A stretch of DNA of 63,996 nt, the filler included, from Reclinomonas americana ATCC 50394 (lineage: Eukaryota), in assembly GCA_048213135.1 (NCBI GenBank). It is 5 parts of 4 records of this genome, joined end to end, with 100 filler letters (N's around TTAATTAATTAA, not from the genome) between each part and the next. Parts side by side here need not be neighbours in the genome. Positions count along the whole stretch, not along the records: positions 27,324 to 49,472 come from PS015335.1; 4 more parts are not named here. One strand, given 5' to 3'. A program made the translations under genes and the position numbers. Of this stretch, positions 40,187-58,324 are shown one piece after another (within the stretch, counting starts at the first letter, position 1; each line of letters opens with the position of its first letter). Below the pieces are notes generated by a model. It saw nothing but the letters and a program-made list of their open reading frames with translations. It had not been told where the DNA came from and did not search any database.

Positions 40187-41223
40187 CTATTCTGACATGG
40201 CTTCGGGAGCCGCCTCCTCTTCTCGTGATGGTAGTGCAATGCCCCTGCGCCAACGAGAGAGAGGAAATGTGAGGGACGAGGAACAGAGGGATGGGGCGAG
40301 CCGAAGGCGAGCAAGGAAGGTGAAGGGAGACGAACGAAAGAATATGAGAGGCGAGCAAAGGATGGGAAGAACACGAAAGAATGAAAGCAACAGCAGCGAG
40401 ATGAAACACGACACCAGGCAGAGCTCCCTCCCAATTCACCCCCCTTCACCCCGCTCTTCTCCCTTTCTCTCCCCCCTTCTTCTCACCTTGCCTCCGCCGC
40501 ACTCTTTGCACGCTTCAACAACCGCTCCTCCACAATGTTGGCCTCCTGGATGCGCAGATTCTTCTCCGCCAGCTCATACATGGCGTTCTCCAGCATGGCC
40601 AGCGCCTCACTCGATCCCATCTGCGACGACTTGCGTTTCCTGTTCACATCGTCGACTTCGGCGCGTGTCGAATCCAGCCGCGCCGTCGCCTGCCGTCCAT
40701 AGTCCTCCACCAGCGTGTTGCTCTTGCGCCACGCGTTGGGTCCATACTTTTTCGCCAGCTCCAGATTGATGATGCGCGTGCTCTGGTGCTGCAGCANNNN
40801 NNNNNNNNNNNNNNNNCTCTCTCTCTCTCTCTCTCTCTCTCCCTCCCTCCCTCCTCTTGTCCCCTTGCATCCCTCTCAATCACCTGCGACGCCACACCCT
40901 GCTCCGCACGCTGCAACAACGTCGCCAAGAACGGCGACTCCTACCAACCACACACACACACATGAGCCAAGCAACATCATACTTCCCTCAGAACAACGAC
41001 AACTACGAAACAAATCGCAGCTCATAAGGCGGGAACTCCTCCTTCACCCGCTGATGCTCCACATTGGTCGACACACCCGACGCGCGCAACTCCTGCTGGA
41101 TCATCGAGTGCACAAGCTGCTGCATGCGCGGGTCCTCCTACAGAGACAAGCAAAGAACGAGTGAGAAAAAGAGAAAGGAGATGGCCATGTCACACTTGCC
41201 TGCAACAACAAGCGACGGTGTGT

Positions 41224-41303
<80 letters not shown>

Positions 41304-41503
41304 GAGGAGAGAGAGAGGAGAGAGAGAGAGAGAGAGAGNNNNNNNNNNNNNNNNNNNNGCAAGTGTGTGTGTGCAAGTGTGTGCAAGTGTGTGAGAGAGA
41401 GAAGAGAAAGAGTGTGCACGTGTTTGTTTGTTTGTGCGGTTCACGCAACATATTCATGGTCGATGTACGGCAACGCGTCAATCTGCACCTCCTCGTCTTC
41501 CAT
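40187..41503 (-). CDS. BCAS2: Pre-mRNA splicing factor SPF27/BCAS2, internal gap at 40797-40816
   Basis: MEDEEVQIDALPYIDHEY, LVHSMIQQEL, QHQSTRIINLELAKKYGPNAW, VDDVNRKRKSSQ. Confidence 0.9.
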
Positions 41504-41599
41504 TGCACACGCACACGCACACACAAAAGAGCTTGACGATCAAAGTGCGATTCACCGTCTGATGCGATCGATGGATCTCGCTTTTTTTTTTTATGATTG

Positions 41600-41774
41600 A
41601 TGGAGCGTAGTTTGGCTGTTGCTCGAACGCTTCTTACGCGGCTGCCGCCGACGCGCTTCGCATTCGGTTATGGGTCGTCGTTTTTTGCGCAGACGAATTA
41701 TGCCGTGTCGACTTTGAAGGTGTGGGCGAGTGAGGGAAGGGAGAATGTGTGTGTCTCTCTCCGCGTTCTCTCTA

Positions 41775-41808
<34 letters not shown>

Positions 41809-44296
41809 GCACATTCAAGTCACTTGCAGTCTCTGTGAGATTTCCCTTGCATTTTTGACAGATTGTGCGAGTTGTCTTGCATCTTATCGCTTTCTCTCAT
41901 TCTCTCTCTCTCTTACACACACACACACCTCCATGCTACTCTACACGTGCACCTCTGTGCTCAATGCCTCAAGTGTCTCCCTGCGAGTTTTCTCTGTGGA
42001 ATCACGAGTTGTCTTGCATCTTGCTGTTGCTCTCTCTCACACACACCGTTCTCTTCATTCTCAATCTCACACTCTCCTTCCCCTCCCCCCTTCTCCCTCC
42101 CCTCCATCTCCCTCTCACTCTCTTCCTTTCCCTCCACACAGGCCCCCGTCGTGGACGTCGTCGTCGCGGTGGAGAACCCCGCCCTCTGGCATCACGAGAA
42201 CATGCTGTTGAATCGACAAGACTACTCCACGCTGGCGGTGCTCATGGGTTTGTCGTTTTATTTCGCGCCAACAGTGATCACCTTGATGCCGACGTGTGGC
42301 GCTGCAGGTGGTCGACTGGTGGGCGGAATCGCGCAGAGCTTTGGTGCACGAGTGTGGTACAATCCGTATGCCACTGTGGATGGAGTGGTGTGTTGTTGTA
42401 TCTCTTGCTCCATCTCTCTTTGCCGCCTTTCCCTTCTCACCACCCTCCCCCCCCCAGCGCGTCAAATACGGCGTGGTGAGCATGTCAGCACTGGAGAACG
42501 ACTTGCGGCATTGGGAAACACTATTCCTCGCCGGCCGGTTGCACAAGCCGGTGTGCACCACTCTTTGTCATGCCCTTCTTGCTTGTGCCCCCTGTGGCCT
42601 TACATTGTCGGTAGGTCAAGTTCATTCACGGCGAAGCCCCACTGCCGGAGCATCTGGAAGAGGCACTGCAGCAGAACCTACGTAGTGCGGTGTACACGGC
42701 GCTGCTGATGCTGCCAACGCACTTTACCGTGGGTGACTTGTACCAAAAGATCACTGGCCTCTCGTACACGGGTTTGTTTGCAGGCGTTTCTGCGGATCCC
42801 TCAGCAGATCACCGCTGACGTCTATGATGCAGGCGATCCACGCATGGGCATGGCAGAGAATCCCGACAAGGTGCACAACATTGTGCACGGTCACCTGCCG
42901 CTCTTTGAAGAGCTCTACGCACCACTCCTGCCATCCATACGTGGTCTCCACGCCAATGTCGACACTGGAAATTGCTCGGTGAGTGCCTTTCTCTCTCTAT
43001 CTCTGTTCATCTTGCCTGTGTGTCCGAGCGCTTCTGTCTGTCTGTCTGTCTCTTCATCTTGCGTGTGTGTGCAAGTGTGTCTGTCTGTCTCTCTGTCTGT
43101 CTGGCTGACTGTCTCTCTCTCTCTCTCTCTCTGTCTGTATCTCTCTCTGTGCGTGCGTGTGTGTGTGTGTGTGTGTCTGTGACAGCTGTCTGTCTGTCTG
43201 TCTGTCTGTCTCTCCGTCTCTCTCTCTCTCTCTCTGTGCGTGGGTGTCTGTGCGAGTGTGTGTCTGTCTGTCTCTCTCTATATGTCTCTCCTCTCTCTCT
43301 CTCTCTCGCTCTCTCTCTCTCTCTGTATGTGTGTGTGTGTTTTTCTGCCCTTCCTCTCACCGTTTTACAGTTTGACCACTCGCCCGAGTCCGTGGCGCAC
43401 GCGCTGAGTCAGCTCCCATGGTGGCTGCAGCAGGATGTGCTGGAGACGTGGCGCGGTGCCTCGCCACCAGAGCCACCGCGGGACGGTTTGTCGCGCTCCC
43501 ATCCTTCATTCCTTTCACCCCATTGTCAGCGCTGACGCAATCCCCATGCAGGCCTGCTGCGCATCACCTCGCTGGATCTGGTGGGCGAAACGGTCACCAT
43601 CTCCAACGTCGGCTACCTGCCAGTGTCACTCGAGGGGCACGTGCTGATGGATCACCAAACACACATTGGTCAGGCGAAGCGCGGACGATACACCTTCCCC
43701 GCCGGTGTGTGACAAAAGGAACTGTGATACGATGACATCGGTGCGCCACTGACGTCTGTGCGTTGCGTGAGCAGGAATGATGCTGGGTCCAGGCCGAGCG
43801 GTCACTCTGCACAGCGGGCCGCGAGCCAAGCGCACACGACAGTACGTTTGTTGATGGGAGAGATGATCTCGTAACCCGCTGACCCGCTGCTGCACAGAAC
43901 ATACGACGGCACCTCGCACATCAACTGGATGTACTATCGAGTGTGGAACAATGACGGTGATGTGGCGTATCTGCTGGACTCGCAAGGCGCCGAGGTGCAC
44001 CGTTTGGGACGTGGTCCGCGTGGTGAGCAGTCGCCTGCTCAGCGATCTTTTCCCCGCAACCGTTGTCTCACCACATGGCAGGCAACGATCCACTCTACGA
44101 GATGGCACTCCACGAGCACGATCGGGGGGCGTCACGCGTACCCTCGCTGGTCGAGCAGGCCGTCAGTCGACGGGTGCGCTCGAGCATGAATGGTCAGTAT
44201 TTCCTCGGTGTACTGTCGGCGGGCCCACTCGGCGCCCTCCGATATGTGCGGGAGAAGGTGGAGAAGAACTGGCGAGTGCGTGCCACGCGAAGGTGA
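41600..44296 (+). CDS. TAM41: Mitochondrial phosphatidate cytidylyltransferase TAM41 with inserted lamin-tail-like domain
   Basis: FAFGYGS, VDVVVAV, WHHENM, VKYGVVS, DLRHWETLFLAGRLHKPV, NLRSAV, GLSYTGDPRM..AENPDKVHNIV, and C-terminal Q..LGVLSAG...Y..EK..K. Confidence 0.92.
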
Positions 44297-44329
44297 CTCC
44301 AAGCGTGATTAAAGGGAAATAAAAGATTG

Positions 44330-45320
44330 AATGCATTGTGCTTCTCTCCTCATTCGGTCGGGGGAGAAGAATTGGCGCACATGCGTGCCAGGAGGATGAT
44401 AATTCCAAGCTTGGTGAAGAACGGAAACACTCTTTCCGTTGTGCTTCTCTCTGCGCGCATGAAGCGGTCCGGAGAGAATGATGCGTCAAGCGTAATACGA
44501 AAGAGGAAAGACTCCATCGTTGTGCTTCTCTCGTCGTGCCTGCTGCGGCCCAGAGAGAAGCATAGACGACGAAGAAAAGATTGGATCCATTGCTTCTCTC
44601 TGCGTGCATGAAGTGACCCGGGGGCGAAGCAAAGGCAGCAGAGAAAGACTGCATCCATTGCTTCTCTCTGCGTGCACGAAGCGGCGCAGGGAAGGACTGG
44701 AATCAGAGAAAGACTATTCTCCACTGTGCTTCCTTCCGCCTGCCAGAAGCGGCCTTAAGCTTGGGAGAAGAAAAGGAAGAAGGAGGAGAAGAAGAAGGAG
44801 AGGAAGAAGAAGAAGAAGAAGAAGAAGAACACCAATAACAACAACAACAACAACAACAACATCAACAACAAGAACAAGAACAAGAACAAGAAGACCAAGA
44901 AGAAGAAGCCACGCGAAGGAAATTCCAGAGGTAATGCTGGAGCCATTGTGCTTCGAAGCTTCCCCTCCGCTTGCGTGAAGTGACAGTGCCACACGAAGAA
45001 ACTGCACGCGACATTGAGGGCAAAAGATGCTTGCATCCTTGTGCTTTCCTCCACATGCCTGAAGCGACCGTGCCACACGAAGGAACTCCACGCGACATTG
45101 ACGGCAGGAGATGACTGCATCCTTGTGTTTCCCTCCGCGTGTCTGAAGCGACCGCGCTACACGAAAGACGTTGAAGGCAACAGATGCTTGCATCCAGCGC
45201 GCCTCCCTCCACATGCCAGAAACGACCTGTGGAGCAAAAACTGGCAAGCACAATCGTGATTAAAGAAAAGAAAGATTGGATCCATTGTGTTTTCCCCCGC
45301 GTGCCTGTGAAGCAGGTGCA
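44330..45320. repeat. Degenerate tandem repeat array between TAM41 and LEO1
   Basis: Roughly a dozen copies of CCATTGTGCTTCYCTC..GCGTGC.TGAAGCG.CC-like core at 60-90 bp spacing, split by (GAA)n/(CAA)n at 44770-44910. Confidence 0.7.
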
Positions 45321-56273: not shown

Positions 56274-57320
56274 TTACTTGGAGCTGTCGTACACGCCGGC
56301 GTAGACCTGCGACTCAATGCCGCACTCGTTCTTGCCGCGGCGGATCCAGAAGACGCCGTCCATGCCCCACGAGGTGCCCCAGCTGTTGTTGACAATCCAG
56401 TACTCCTCCTTCTTCTCATCCACACCCCAGCCAATGATCTTGACGGCGTGGCCGCCAGCCAGGCTGCCGTGCGTGTGGTGGTACACACCAGACTTGTAGT
56501 TGAAGAAGTCGTCGTAGACCGAGAAGCCAGCCTCCACCGGGCCGTTGGTCATCACCTCAGTGGCGATCGAGGCAGCATCGGTGAACGAGCCGGTGCCCTT
56601 GGCGTAGAAGTACTTCGAGTTCGACGGCGACGGGCACGCAGAGGTGGCCGGGAGCGGCTTCGGCGGCACAGCAGTGCACGTGCCAGAGTCGCCGCCACCA
56701 GAGGTGTACGGGTAGCACGAGTCGAGCGGCACGCCAGACTGGGTCATGAAGGCCCAGGCGTTCTGCAGGTAGCCGCCCTGGCAGCCGTAGTCGGTGGTGT
56801 CGCAGCTCACCAGCTCCTGCGGGGAGAGCACCGGCTCCAGCTGGCCCTTGGTGGCAATGCACACGCGGTCGGCGAACGACTCGGTGGCGGCAAACGCCCA
56901 GCAGCTGCCGCACTGCGCCTGGTCGCGGATGTTGTTGATGCTCTTGGCGCACTCGGCCCACTGGGTGGCGGCGTTGAACGAGTCGGGAATGTCGGCGCGG
57001 TGCAGCACCACCTGAGTGCCAAACACCGGGGCGTTCTCAGTGTCCAGGCGCAGGCCCAGGCGCTTCTTGGCTGAGAGAGAGAGAGAGAGAGCAAAAAAGT
57101 GAGGACGAGTCACGCAAACACGGACAACAACTGCGATGTGCCACTCACCATCCTTGAAGGTCACACCGCGGAACACCTCATTGTCGCCGGCGACCCAGCT
57201 GGCACCCGAGTTGTTCACAATGAACTGGGTGCGCTTGCTGAGCACCAGGTCGTCGTCCTGCAGAGCGGACGCGACCACCACAATGGCGGCGATGATGGCG
57301 ACGACAATGAACTGACGCAT
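56274..57320 (-). CDS. Cathepsin B-like cysteine peptidase (C1A), active site intact, single intron 57071-57148
   Basis: Signal peptide, IRDQAQCGSCWAF, LSPQELVSCD, GCQGG, GGHAVKIIGWG, YWIVNNSWG; no obvious His-His occluding loop. Confidence 0.96.
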   Translation of the reverse strand: MRQFIVVAIIAAIVVVASALQDDDLVLSKRTQFIVNNSGASWVAGDNEVFRGVTFKDGEWHIAVVVRVCVTRPHFFALSLSLSAKKRLGLRLDTENAPVFGTQVVLHRADIPDSFNAATQWAECAKSINNIRDQAQCGSCWAFAATESFADRVCIATKGQLEPVLSPQELVSCDTTDYGCQGGYLQNAWAFMTQSGVPLDSCYPYTSGGGDSGTCTAVPPKPLPATSACPSPSNSKYFYAKGTGSFTDAASIATEVMTNGPVEAGFSVYDDFFNYKSGVYHHTHGSLAGGHAVKIIGWGVDEKKEEYWIVNNSWGTSWGMDGVFWIRRGKNECGIESQVYAGVYDSSK

Positions 57321-58324
57321 GCTGCGAGTGGGGAGAGAGGGAGACTGCAGTCAGTCGCTGAAAAGCGCGTGGAGTTTTGCAGAATATTCTTCAGAGAGGA
57401 GGGAGGCAAGGCGCACATGGAGGAAACGAAGAGCGGAGAGGAGGAGGAGGGCGAGGAGGGAGAGGAAAGGGGGGCGGAAAAACAGGCGAAATGCGCCATG
57501 ACAAGAGTTTGCCCGCCGCGTGCCACGGCACTCACACAAACACACACAAAGCATCATGCAACAGCGCCCCTGTCACAAGTGGAAGCAGTCATGCGCACGC
57601 ACAAGAAAAAAGAGGAGGAGTGGAGTGTGGTGAATGAAAAGCGAGGAAATGTGCGCCATCTTCTCGCACGCGCTCCAAAAAATGCAACGACCCCCACTAC
57701 ACACACACGCGCAGTGTGCATGTGCAGCGACTCGCAGAGTCTCTACACTCCCCAGTCGGGAACATGCAGGAGACGTGTCACAACAAAAAAAAGAGACCAA
57801 GCAATCAATCGCAGCAGGTTACACTGTAACCCAAAAGAGAAAAAAGTCGACAACCAATGACACAGATAGGAGGAGGAGAAAAACAGGGTAGCAAGGGGGA
57901 AGGCGGAGGGGAATGGGAGAGGAAGAGTAAAGGAAGCGCGTTCTCACCTCTCTCAACACAAAATGTGGAAATGAAAAAGTTAGACGACGGAAATTTGCGG
58001 CTCGGGGGTCGCTGCCTCGACTCCGGCGTGCCGGCCGCCACAACAAAAAAACACAACTCCTCTCGCACCGCGCACTCTGCACGAGAGACAGTGTGAGAGA
58101 GCGCGAGCGACAGACAACTCTGCACACTCCGCAAGCACCAAGTTCCAAAATCGGACAGGAATATTCTGCATTGAGATCGTGGTTGATGCAGCAAGCGGCG
58201 TAAAGTGCAAGAGATTGCGCCAGAGAGGATCCGGAGAGACATCAGAAGGAGGAAGCGTGACCCAGCGCAATCAGAACTCAGTAACCGAATTGGCCGCCAT
58301 TTCAATCCGTTGCACAAACAAACA

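Follow-up and report, generated by a model that had tools for sequence, protein, structure and literature searches.

Introduction

The closest described relatives of the protein reported here are the Tam41/TAMM41 enzymes (PF09139), represented by the structures 6IG2 and 6IG4 from S. pombe and 7ECD from Firmicutes, which we found using the homologue P0002 and which show the same order of a nucleotidyltransferase and winged-helix core followed by C-terminal helices. According to the part of PMC7018664 that was accessible, TAM41 is located on the matrix side and attaches to the membrane through a C-terminal amphipathic helix of positive charge. As a rule TAM41 is a plain enzyme, and none of the 155 relatives examined in this work has an ordered domain inserted beside the membrane anchor. 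The TAM41 of Reclinomonas americana ATCC 50394 (assembly GCA_048213135.1) differs from these proteins in an additional lamin-tail domain (LTD) of 115 residues in the loop before the C-terminal helices, and in a leucine replacing the nearly invariant lysine of the C-terminal QxxKG motif. It was identified in a stretch of 63,996 nucleotides, filler between its parts included, which is called the window in the following.

A jakobid counterpart is Tam41 from Andalucia godoyi, for which the excerpt of PMC7050145 gives 348 residues and an intronless gene. Compared by eye with the excerpted sequence, both proteins have a short N-terminus and a serine after YGS, the latter being found in only 3 of the 155 other TAM41s. 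The two anchor motifs are separated by about 109 residues in this Tam41 (by eye, same excerpt) and by 244 in our query, thus leaving no room for an LTD in the Andalucia protein.

Membrane targeting by the LTD was reportedly proposed in a paper of 2004. In the available sections of PMC6085458 the role of bacterial LTDs is stated as not elucidated, with membrane targeting as a suggestion, and deletion of the LTD from the nuclease ExeM is described to lower the activity in vitro, in a membrane-free assay, and hardly in plate assays. Prokaryotic LTDs of the WNNDGD type, as they occur in SNase, MBL/ComEC-like, DUF1524 and EEP proteins, show the same motifs as the insert in TAM41. They are C-terminal and mostly acidic, whereas the insert is internal, split by two introns and basic, with two longer loops and a histidine in place of a core tryptophan. 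The tail of the nuclear lamins (lamin A/C, B1 and B2) belongs to the same fold family and is about 25% identical to a prokaryotic template, but lamins possess a coiled-coil rod, an NLS and a CaaX end, while our LTD is flanked by TAM41 on both sides, with neither rod nor CaaX; the TAM41-LTD protein is not a lamin.

A precedent for LTDs on non-lamin proteins of protists is found in the accessible part of Koreny and Field 2016 (PMC5630835), the supplement of which has 0 occurrences of Tam41 or Mmp37. The stramenopile proteins W7TNN4, D8LHR1 and XP_012194028 in that part carry the LTD N-terminally, before a membrane domain and not inserted, and one of them also has a histidine at the LxGW position. 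This membrane domain resembles, by eye only and in the sequences as given there, a degenerate phosphatidylinositol-synthase-like CDP-alcohol phosphatidyltransferase, so that these proteins form a possible second link of LTDs to CDP-DAG chemistry in protists.

Results and Discussion

Gene structure and the TAM41 core

The TAM41 gene comprises 11 exons on the + strand (41600-44296), and its spliced frame of 458 codons contains one stop and none internally. The features of the locus are as follows:

40483..41502, - strand: BCAS2/SPF27 gene, Pfam BCAS2 match on its last exon, start read from the sequence
41600..41719, + strand: TAM41 exon 1, start codon and YGS motif of the nucleotidyltransferase domain, Pfam Tam41 3-29
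42142..42978, + strand: TAM41 exons 2-6 (42142-42247, 42308-42387, 42458-42550, 42615-42771, 42833-42978), core of nucleotidyltransferase and winged-helix domains, Pfam Tam41 35-216 in order, also found with intact splice sites in the second copy
43371..43485, + strand: TAM41 exon 7, final core helices, then a proline-rich linker before the insert
43486..43551, + strand: TAM41 intron 7, 66 nt (second copy 56 nt), phase 1, upstream edge of the LTD block
43552..43704, + strand: exon 8, first LTD half, containing a basic loop insertion, Pfam LTD 10-53
43775..43841, + strand: exon 9, middle of the LTD and beginning of the second basic loop, aligned by the prokaryotic LTD profile
43898..44022, + strand: exon 10, final strands of the LTD including the WNNDGD motif, followed by a Gly/Arg linker, Pfam LTD 83-107
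44023..44081, + strand: TAM41 intron 10, 59 nt (second copy 61 nt), phase 1, downstream edge of the LTD block
44082..44296, + strand: TAM41 exon 11, C-terminal helices, which by homology form the membrane-binding region, and stop codon, Pfam Tam41 277-322

All ten introns are of the GT-AG type and eight of them are 56-70 nt long, introns 1 and 6 being longer with 422 and 392 nt. The first-pass annotation had placed three in-phase exons between the TAM41 core and its last helices at 43552..44022, and these coordinates proved to be exact, with one open frame across the joins 43485/43552, 43704/43775, 43841/43898 and 44022/44082. The three exons encode residues 273-387 of the spliced protein. Its N-terminus is short and basic, without a long presequence, and an in-frame stop directly precedes the ATG. 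The starts of BCAS2/SPF27 and TAM41 lie head to head about 100 bases apart (41502-41600), as in a very compact shared promoter, which leaves little space for an additional upstream TAM41 exon. Intron 2 (42248-42307) is a peculiarity of its own, as its 60 nt are in frame and free of stops, homologues have no insert at that point, and 59 of the 60 bases are identical between the two copies, which is more than in most of the short introns.

Scanned exon by exon, exons 1-6 match Pfam Tam41_Mmp37 (PF09139) at positions 3-216 in order and exon 11 at positions 277-322 of 322, with four exons each exceeding the 24-bit cut-off alone. Exon 7, without a Pfam match of its own, aligns to residues 235-264 of P0002, a homologue lacking an LTD for which an AlphaFold model from a 96-row alignment was used (pLDDT 96), and exon 11 corresponds to the helices 272-302 and 304-322 in this model. 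Of 59 columns with at least 85% conservation among the 155 homologues the query retains 55, including the motifs YGS, KYG, GRxxKP and GDxR and the acidic residue of the first domain. Its C-terminal helix region has a net charge of +2 to +5 and a modest hydrophobic moment of about 0.3, with one conserved lysine being the leucine mentioned above, and the protein ends in a basic tail. The nearest homologue is only about 36-39% identical, the sampled set containing no close relative of the organism, and in a tree of 156 sequences and 305 columns the query is located on a long branch (support 0.71), so that the organism is not assigned to a lineage by this tree. From its sequence the enzyme looks intact, and the protein would be the TAM41 of this organism, a predicted active mitochondrial CDP-diacylglycerol synthase using CTP and phosphatidic acid and feeding cardiolipin synthesis.

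The insert is a lamin-tail domain

The suggestion that the insert is an LTD is borne out by several profile comparisons. Pfam LTD was scanned against single exons and the unspliced frame only, where it matches exon 8 at profile positions 10-53 (E 0.033, 15 bits) and exon 10 at positions 83-107 (E 0.012, 16.4 bits), that is in profile order and below the cut-off of 34.3; exon 9 has no Pfam match by itself, and the unspliced genomic frame reaches 27.8 bits with PF00932 against the same cut-off. We therefore scored the spliced protein with an HMM from 47 prokaryotic loci sharing the exon-10 WNNDGD motif, from which the query was left out, and obtained 68 bits for residues 271-382 over profile positions 22-120 of 122. 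As these loci had been found by the insert's own WNNDGD motif, the 89 residues before the motif were scored separately, giving 33.7 bits compared to 5.9 for the best of 500 shuffles. Of the 26 prokaryotic ORFs scanned from the 47 loci, 25 exceed the Pfam LTD cut-off. When a profile of templates plus exons was run against the PDB, all 16 matches at E<=0.1 were lamin tails. For one prokaryotic template, 44-50% identical to exons 8 and 10 of the insert, an AlphaFold model has a pLDDT of 89 and a TM score of 0.84 to lamin A/C. By these profile matches exons 8-10 are an LTD.

Some features set the insert apart from the LTDs compared. The core tryptophan of LxGW, 90% conserved among them, is a histidine, and the two loops bearing lysine and arginine are longer than in seven aligned templates. 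The insert has a pI of 9.2-9.8, while 44 prokaryotic LTD segments have a median of 4.3 and only one of them exceeds 9. This difference may merely stem from the protein being mitochondrial or from an archaeal bias among the segments compared. The GC3 of 0.71 is the same for the LTD and the TAM41 core.

Two copies of the gene, splicing and selection

PF09139 matches two places only in the assembly, this locus (contig C327) and the short contig C5879, which may be an allele or a recent duplicate of it. As C5879 begins in TAM41 intron 1 it lacks exon 1, but the LTD exons are present in both copies and all compared splice sites are kept. The 419 codons compared contain 24 synonymous changes and 1 replacement between the copies. 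Within the insert exon 8 is identical down to the nucleotide, exon 9 shows 1 synonymous difference and exon 10 shows 3, adding up to 4 synonymous and 0 replacement changes over 255 replacement sites. The eight short introns differ at 33 of 490 positions (6.7%), from which about 17 replacement changes would be predicted in exons 8-10 (P about 2e-8), and introns 7 and 10 vary in length between the copies while the exons do not. Kept splice sites and the lack of replacements despite 6.7% intron divergence suggest that the insert is translated and selected, and judged from this comparison it is under purifying selection.

These data also bear on the way in which the exons are used. Since intron 7 carries an in-frame stop, it must be spliced out for a TAM41-LTD fusion. 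One could imagine exons 8-10, which are removable without breaking TAM41, to be a gene of their own within a TAM41 intron, or else an assembly artefact. However, exons 7 and 8 are separated by merely 56-66 bases, no in-frame start codon precedes the LTD, read-through beyond exon 10 stays open for 104 codons in one copy and for 71 in the other, and the same arrangement is found on two contigs, so that both explanations are extremely improbable. The exons might also be cassettes that enter some transcripts only, giving a normal TAM41 besides an LTD-bearing isoform. Both flanking introns are of phase 1, and skipping this symmetric block would yield an in-frame TAM41 of normal length (343 residues) and an intron of 596 nt, comparable to introns 1 and 6. 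On the other hand, introns 7-10 are 56-70 nt long and have donor and acceptor sites resembling those in the TAM41 core, and skipping of three exons is uncommon in genomes with short introns. Cassette use is accordingly rather improbable, and exons 8-10 are very probably spliced constitutively.

Position of the insert in the TAM41 structure

On the P0002 model the insertion site falls at residues 263-265, in the loop 260-264 after helix 251-259 and before the helices of the C-terminal region. Among 152 homologues in which the linker at this point could be measured its median length is 49.5 residues, with 151 of them falling between 24 and 131 and one reaching 362; in the query it is 176 residues with the LTD and 61 without. 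The model thus places the LTD in a length-variable surface loop ahead of the membrane-binding helices. As the site maps before the C-terminal helices, the insert would adjoin the anchor and lie outside both domains of the CTP pocket, and it probably folds independently between the proline-rich and the Gly/Arg linker.

Such a loop could also tolerate a mere passenger, retained since damage to it would misfold an essential enzyme. Long unrelated inserts of up to 362 residues in the same loop of other TAM41s agree with this idea, as does the finding of the architecture in no other TAM41 among the 155, and even the sequence of a passenger might be constrained by selection against misfolding. But with both borders in phase 1 a clean in-frame loss is only one deletion away, and the LTD persisted long enough to acquire two introns and the GC3 of its host, with none of the 255 replacement sites changed. 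A passenger is therefore unlikely in our view, and we regard a translated and selected fusion with a non-catalytic binding role, whatever its ligand, as likely.

Occurrence of the fusion

A TAM41 profile search of 1.84 billion representatives identified 3442 proteins at E<=0.001. An LTD was found in none of 155 TAM41s (the best 150 of the 3442 plus five more), the highest LTD-profile score being 1.9 bits, and a Pfam scan of 40 longer TAM41s also gave no LTD. Conversely, PF09139 was absent from the best 120 of 1075 LTD matches; both counts are samples and not a census. Within these samples the first-pass statement that no other TAM41 with this insert is known is upheld from either side. A search of the mostly open-access literature did not find Tam41 together with the lamin tail, and publications on the lamin tail domain and mitochondria included none on TAM41, as far as their titles or the beginnings of their abstracts tell. 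Single exons proved too insensitive as queries. This applied to exon 5 in the protein collection (0 of 32 candidates), to exons 8 and 10 in PDB sequences and plasmids, to exon 8 in metagenome contigs (0 of 597 pattern matches confirmed) and to the exon 10 frame in viral contigs (0 of 61). Look-ups in the atlas gave weak LTD leads only, namely 0.85 with an LTD on 45% of the members and 0.91 with an LTD on 13%. From the sequences compared, the LTD-TAM41 architecture appears real and selected; it is seen in one genome and was not found elsewhere in the searches run.

Some TAM41s have other additions. P0222 carries about 360 residues of low-complexity sequence inserted in the linker that holds the LTD here, P0188 an N-terminal GNAT domain and P0240 a C-terminal lipase domain, the latter two of which may be gene-model fusions.

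Relatives and origin of the LTD

The closest LTDs found are prokaryotic and match over the full length with 35-46% identity, among them P0032 (the best with 45.6%) and L071 (40%). Sorted by partner, the best 120 of 1075 relatives comprise 44 MBL/ComEC-like, 34 DUF1524, 25 SNase and 2 EEP proteins, 1 phospholipase D and 14 LTDs alone. Taking DUF1524, as we assume, to be a nuclease-type domain, 105 of the 120 listed relatives have nuclease-type or MBL-fold partners, in a sample that is biased because the LTD profile was seeded with MBL and EEP carriers. The support drawn earlier from LTDs accompanying membrane or lipid enzymes in bacteria appears weak.

In a tree of 244 LTDs, eukaryotic ones not among them, the insert joins a metagenomic clade on a long branch with weak support (0.83). 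From the nine members of this clade, the sister of the insert, two were scanned, and both are SNase-LTD proteins. A donor paralogue was not detected in the assembly itself, where exon 8 and two prokaryotic LTD queries matched only both TAM41 loci. Twelve other PF00932 matches at 11 loci of the assembly were considered as donors and rejected as unrelated (best tblastn E 1.0), in a search by which intron-split copies could be missed, and nine CDP-alcohol transferase loci from the assembly have no LTD within them. Host-like GC3 (0.71) and two internal introns show that the LTD block did not arrive recently. Probably the simplest account for a domain placed in a tree without eukaryotic LTDs is an ancient horizontal transfer from a prokaryote, after which two introns were gained. 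Alternatively, it could have been shuffled from a lost or undetected eukaryotic LTD gene, which the phase 1-1 borders would suit, as phase-symmetric borders favour domain shuffling in exon-shuffling theory. In this one genome the locus would be a clean example of how a core eukaryotic gene takes up a domain, here of probably prokaryotic descent, in the form of a phase-symmetric block.

LTDs of another subtype, unrelated to the TAM41 insert, end the near-identical and apparently intronless ORFs L003-L008 (C9521, C2227, C2697, C9451, C3453 and C2698 of assembly G000), which contain Cys-rich and in some cases other repeats and lie on short contigs with host-like microsatellites. Contigs C1, C2 and C12384 of the same assembly are gene-dense, microsatellite-free and bacterial-looking, and the assembly appears to include other organisms. 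With PF08334, used to check a jakobid affiliation of the genome, the only match was on a contig of bacterial appearance, in a search by which a split gene could be missed.

Possible function of the LTD

The best reading of the locus is probably that of an otherwise ordinary CDP-DAG synthase to which a basic binding module was added long ago, probably by horizontal transfer. The first-pass annotation had gone further and regarded the LTD as an accessory module for membrane or lipid targeting; its identity, its place inside TAM41 and its apparent novelty stood up to analysis, whereas the lipid-targeting step is only plausible. In the mechanism that we propose the LTD would be a non-catalytic binding module, the two basic loops of which add affinity for the anionic surface of the inner membrane beside the anchor helix. 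We favour an added affinity for phosphatidic acid or cardiolipin because the insert is basic and adjoins an anchor that acts by positive charge. Provided that the insert is translated, we hold binding of these lipids at the inner membrane to be a tentative assignment, with somewhat less than even chances. It is a point against it that only one lipid-type enzyme, the phospholipase D, occurs among the 120 listed LTD relatives.

Instead of lipids, the LTD of a translated fusion might dock proteins, for example the enzymes that follow TAM41 in the cardiolipin pathway or a mitochondrial complex peculiar to the lineage. Lamin tails have been solved in complexes with BAF and emerin, as seen from PDB titles, and the entire LTD, surface included, is invariant between the two copies. 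Yet no partner was identified, and the main text of PMC8134430, which deals with mitochondrial T2SS-associated proteins of jakobids and heteroloboseans, contains neither 'lamin' nor 'Tam41'; protein docking is rather unlikely.

Nucleic acid is a further candidate ligand, by which CDP-DAG synthesis would be tied to the mitochondrial nucleoid at the matrix face of the inner membrane. It would fit the nuclease-type or MBL-fold partners of the 105 relatives, the SNase-LTD proteins in the sister clade, the two Lys/Arg-rich loops gained by the insert and, as far as the cited sections go, the matrix-side location of TAM41 (PMC7018664) and the loss of ExeM activity upon LTD deletion without membranes being involved (PMC6085458). 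Prokaryotic LTDs are mostly acidic, however, which makes DNA binding no obvious inherited property, and we consider this ligand improbable. Slightly less improbable, but still quite unlikely, is a broader scenario in which a nuclease-associated LTD of a prokaryote was captured by an essential mitochondrial lipid enzyme and re-tuned, from acidic to basic and with two new loops, into a tether that would keep CDP-DAG and with it cardiolipin synthesis at a particular place on the inner membrane, with the mtDNA nucleoid as the tethering point in its boldest form. The searches run turned up no further mitochondrial lipid enzyme with an LTD.

An LTD on an enzyme with a simple read-out, either rescue of a yeast tam41 deletion or a CDP-DAG synthase assay, makes the membrane-tether idea testable, and if a tether it is, the protein would offer a direct assay for what LTDs of the prokaryotic type bind.

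Two minor observations concern the remainder of the window. Degenerate repeats of about 60 bases follow the TAM41 stop at 44300-45300 and are present in the second copy too. At 56274-57350 on the - strand a papain-family cysteine protease has its catalytic domain in one open frame, which is unusual in this intron-rich window.
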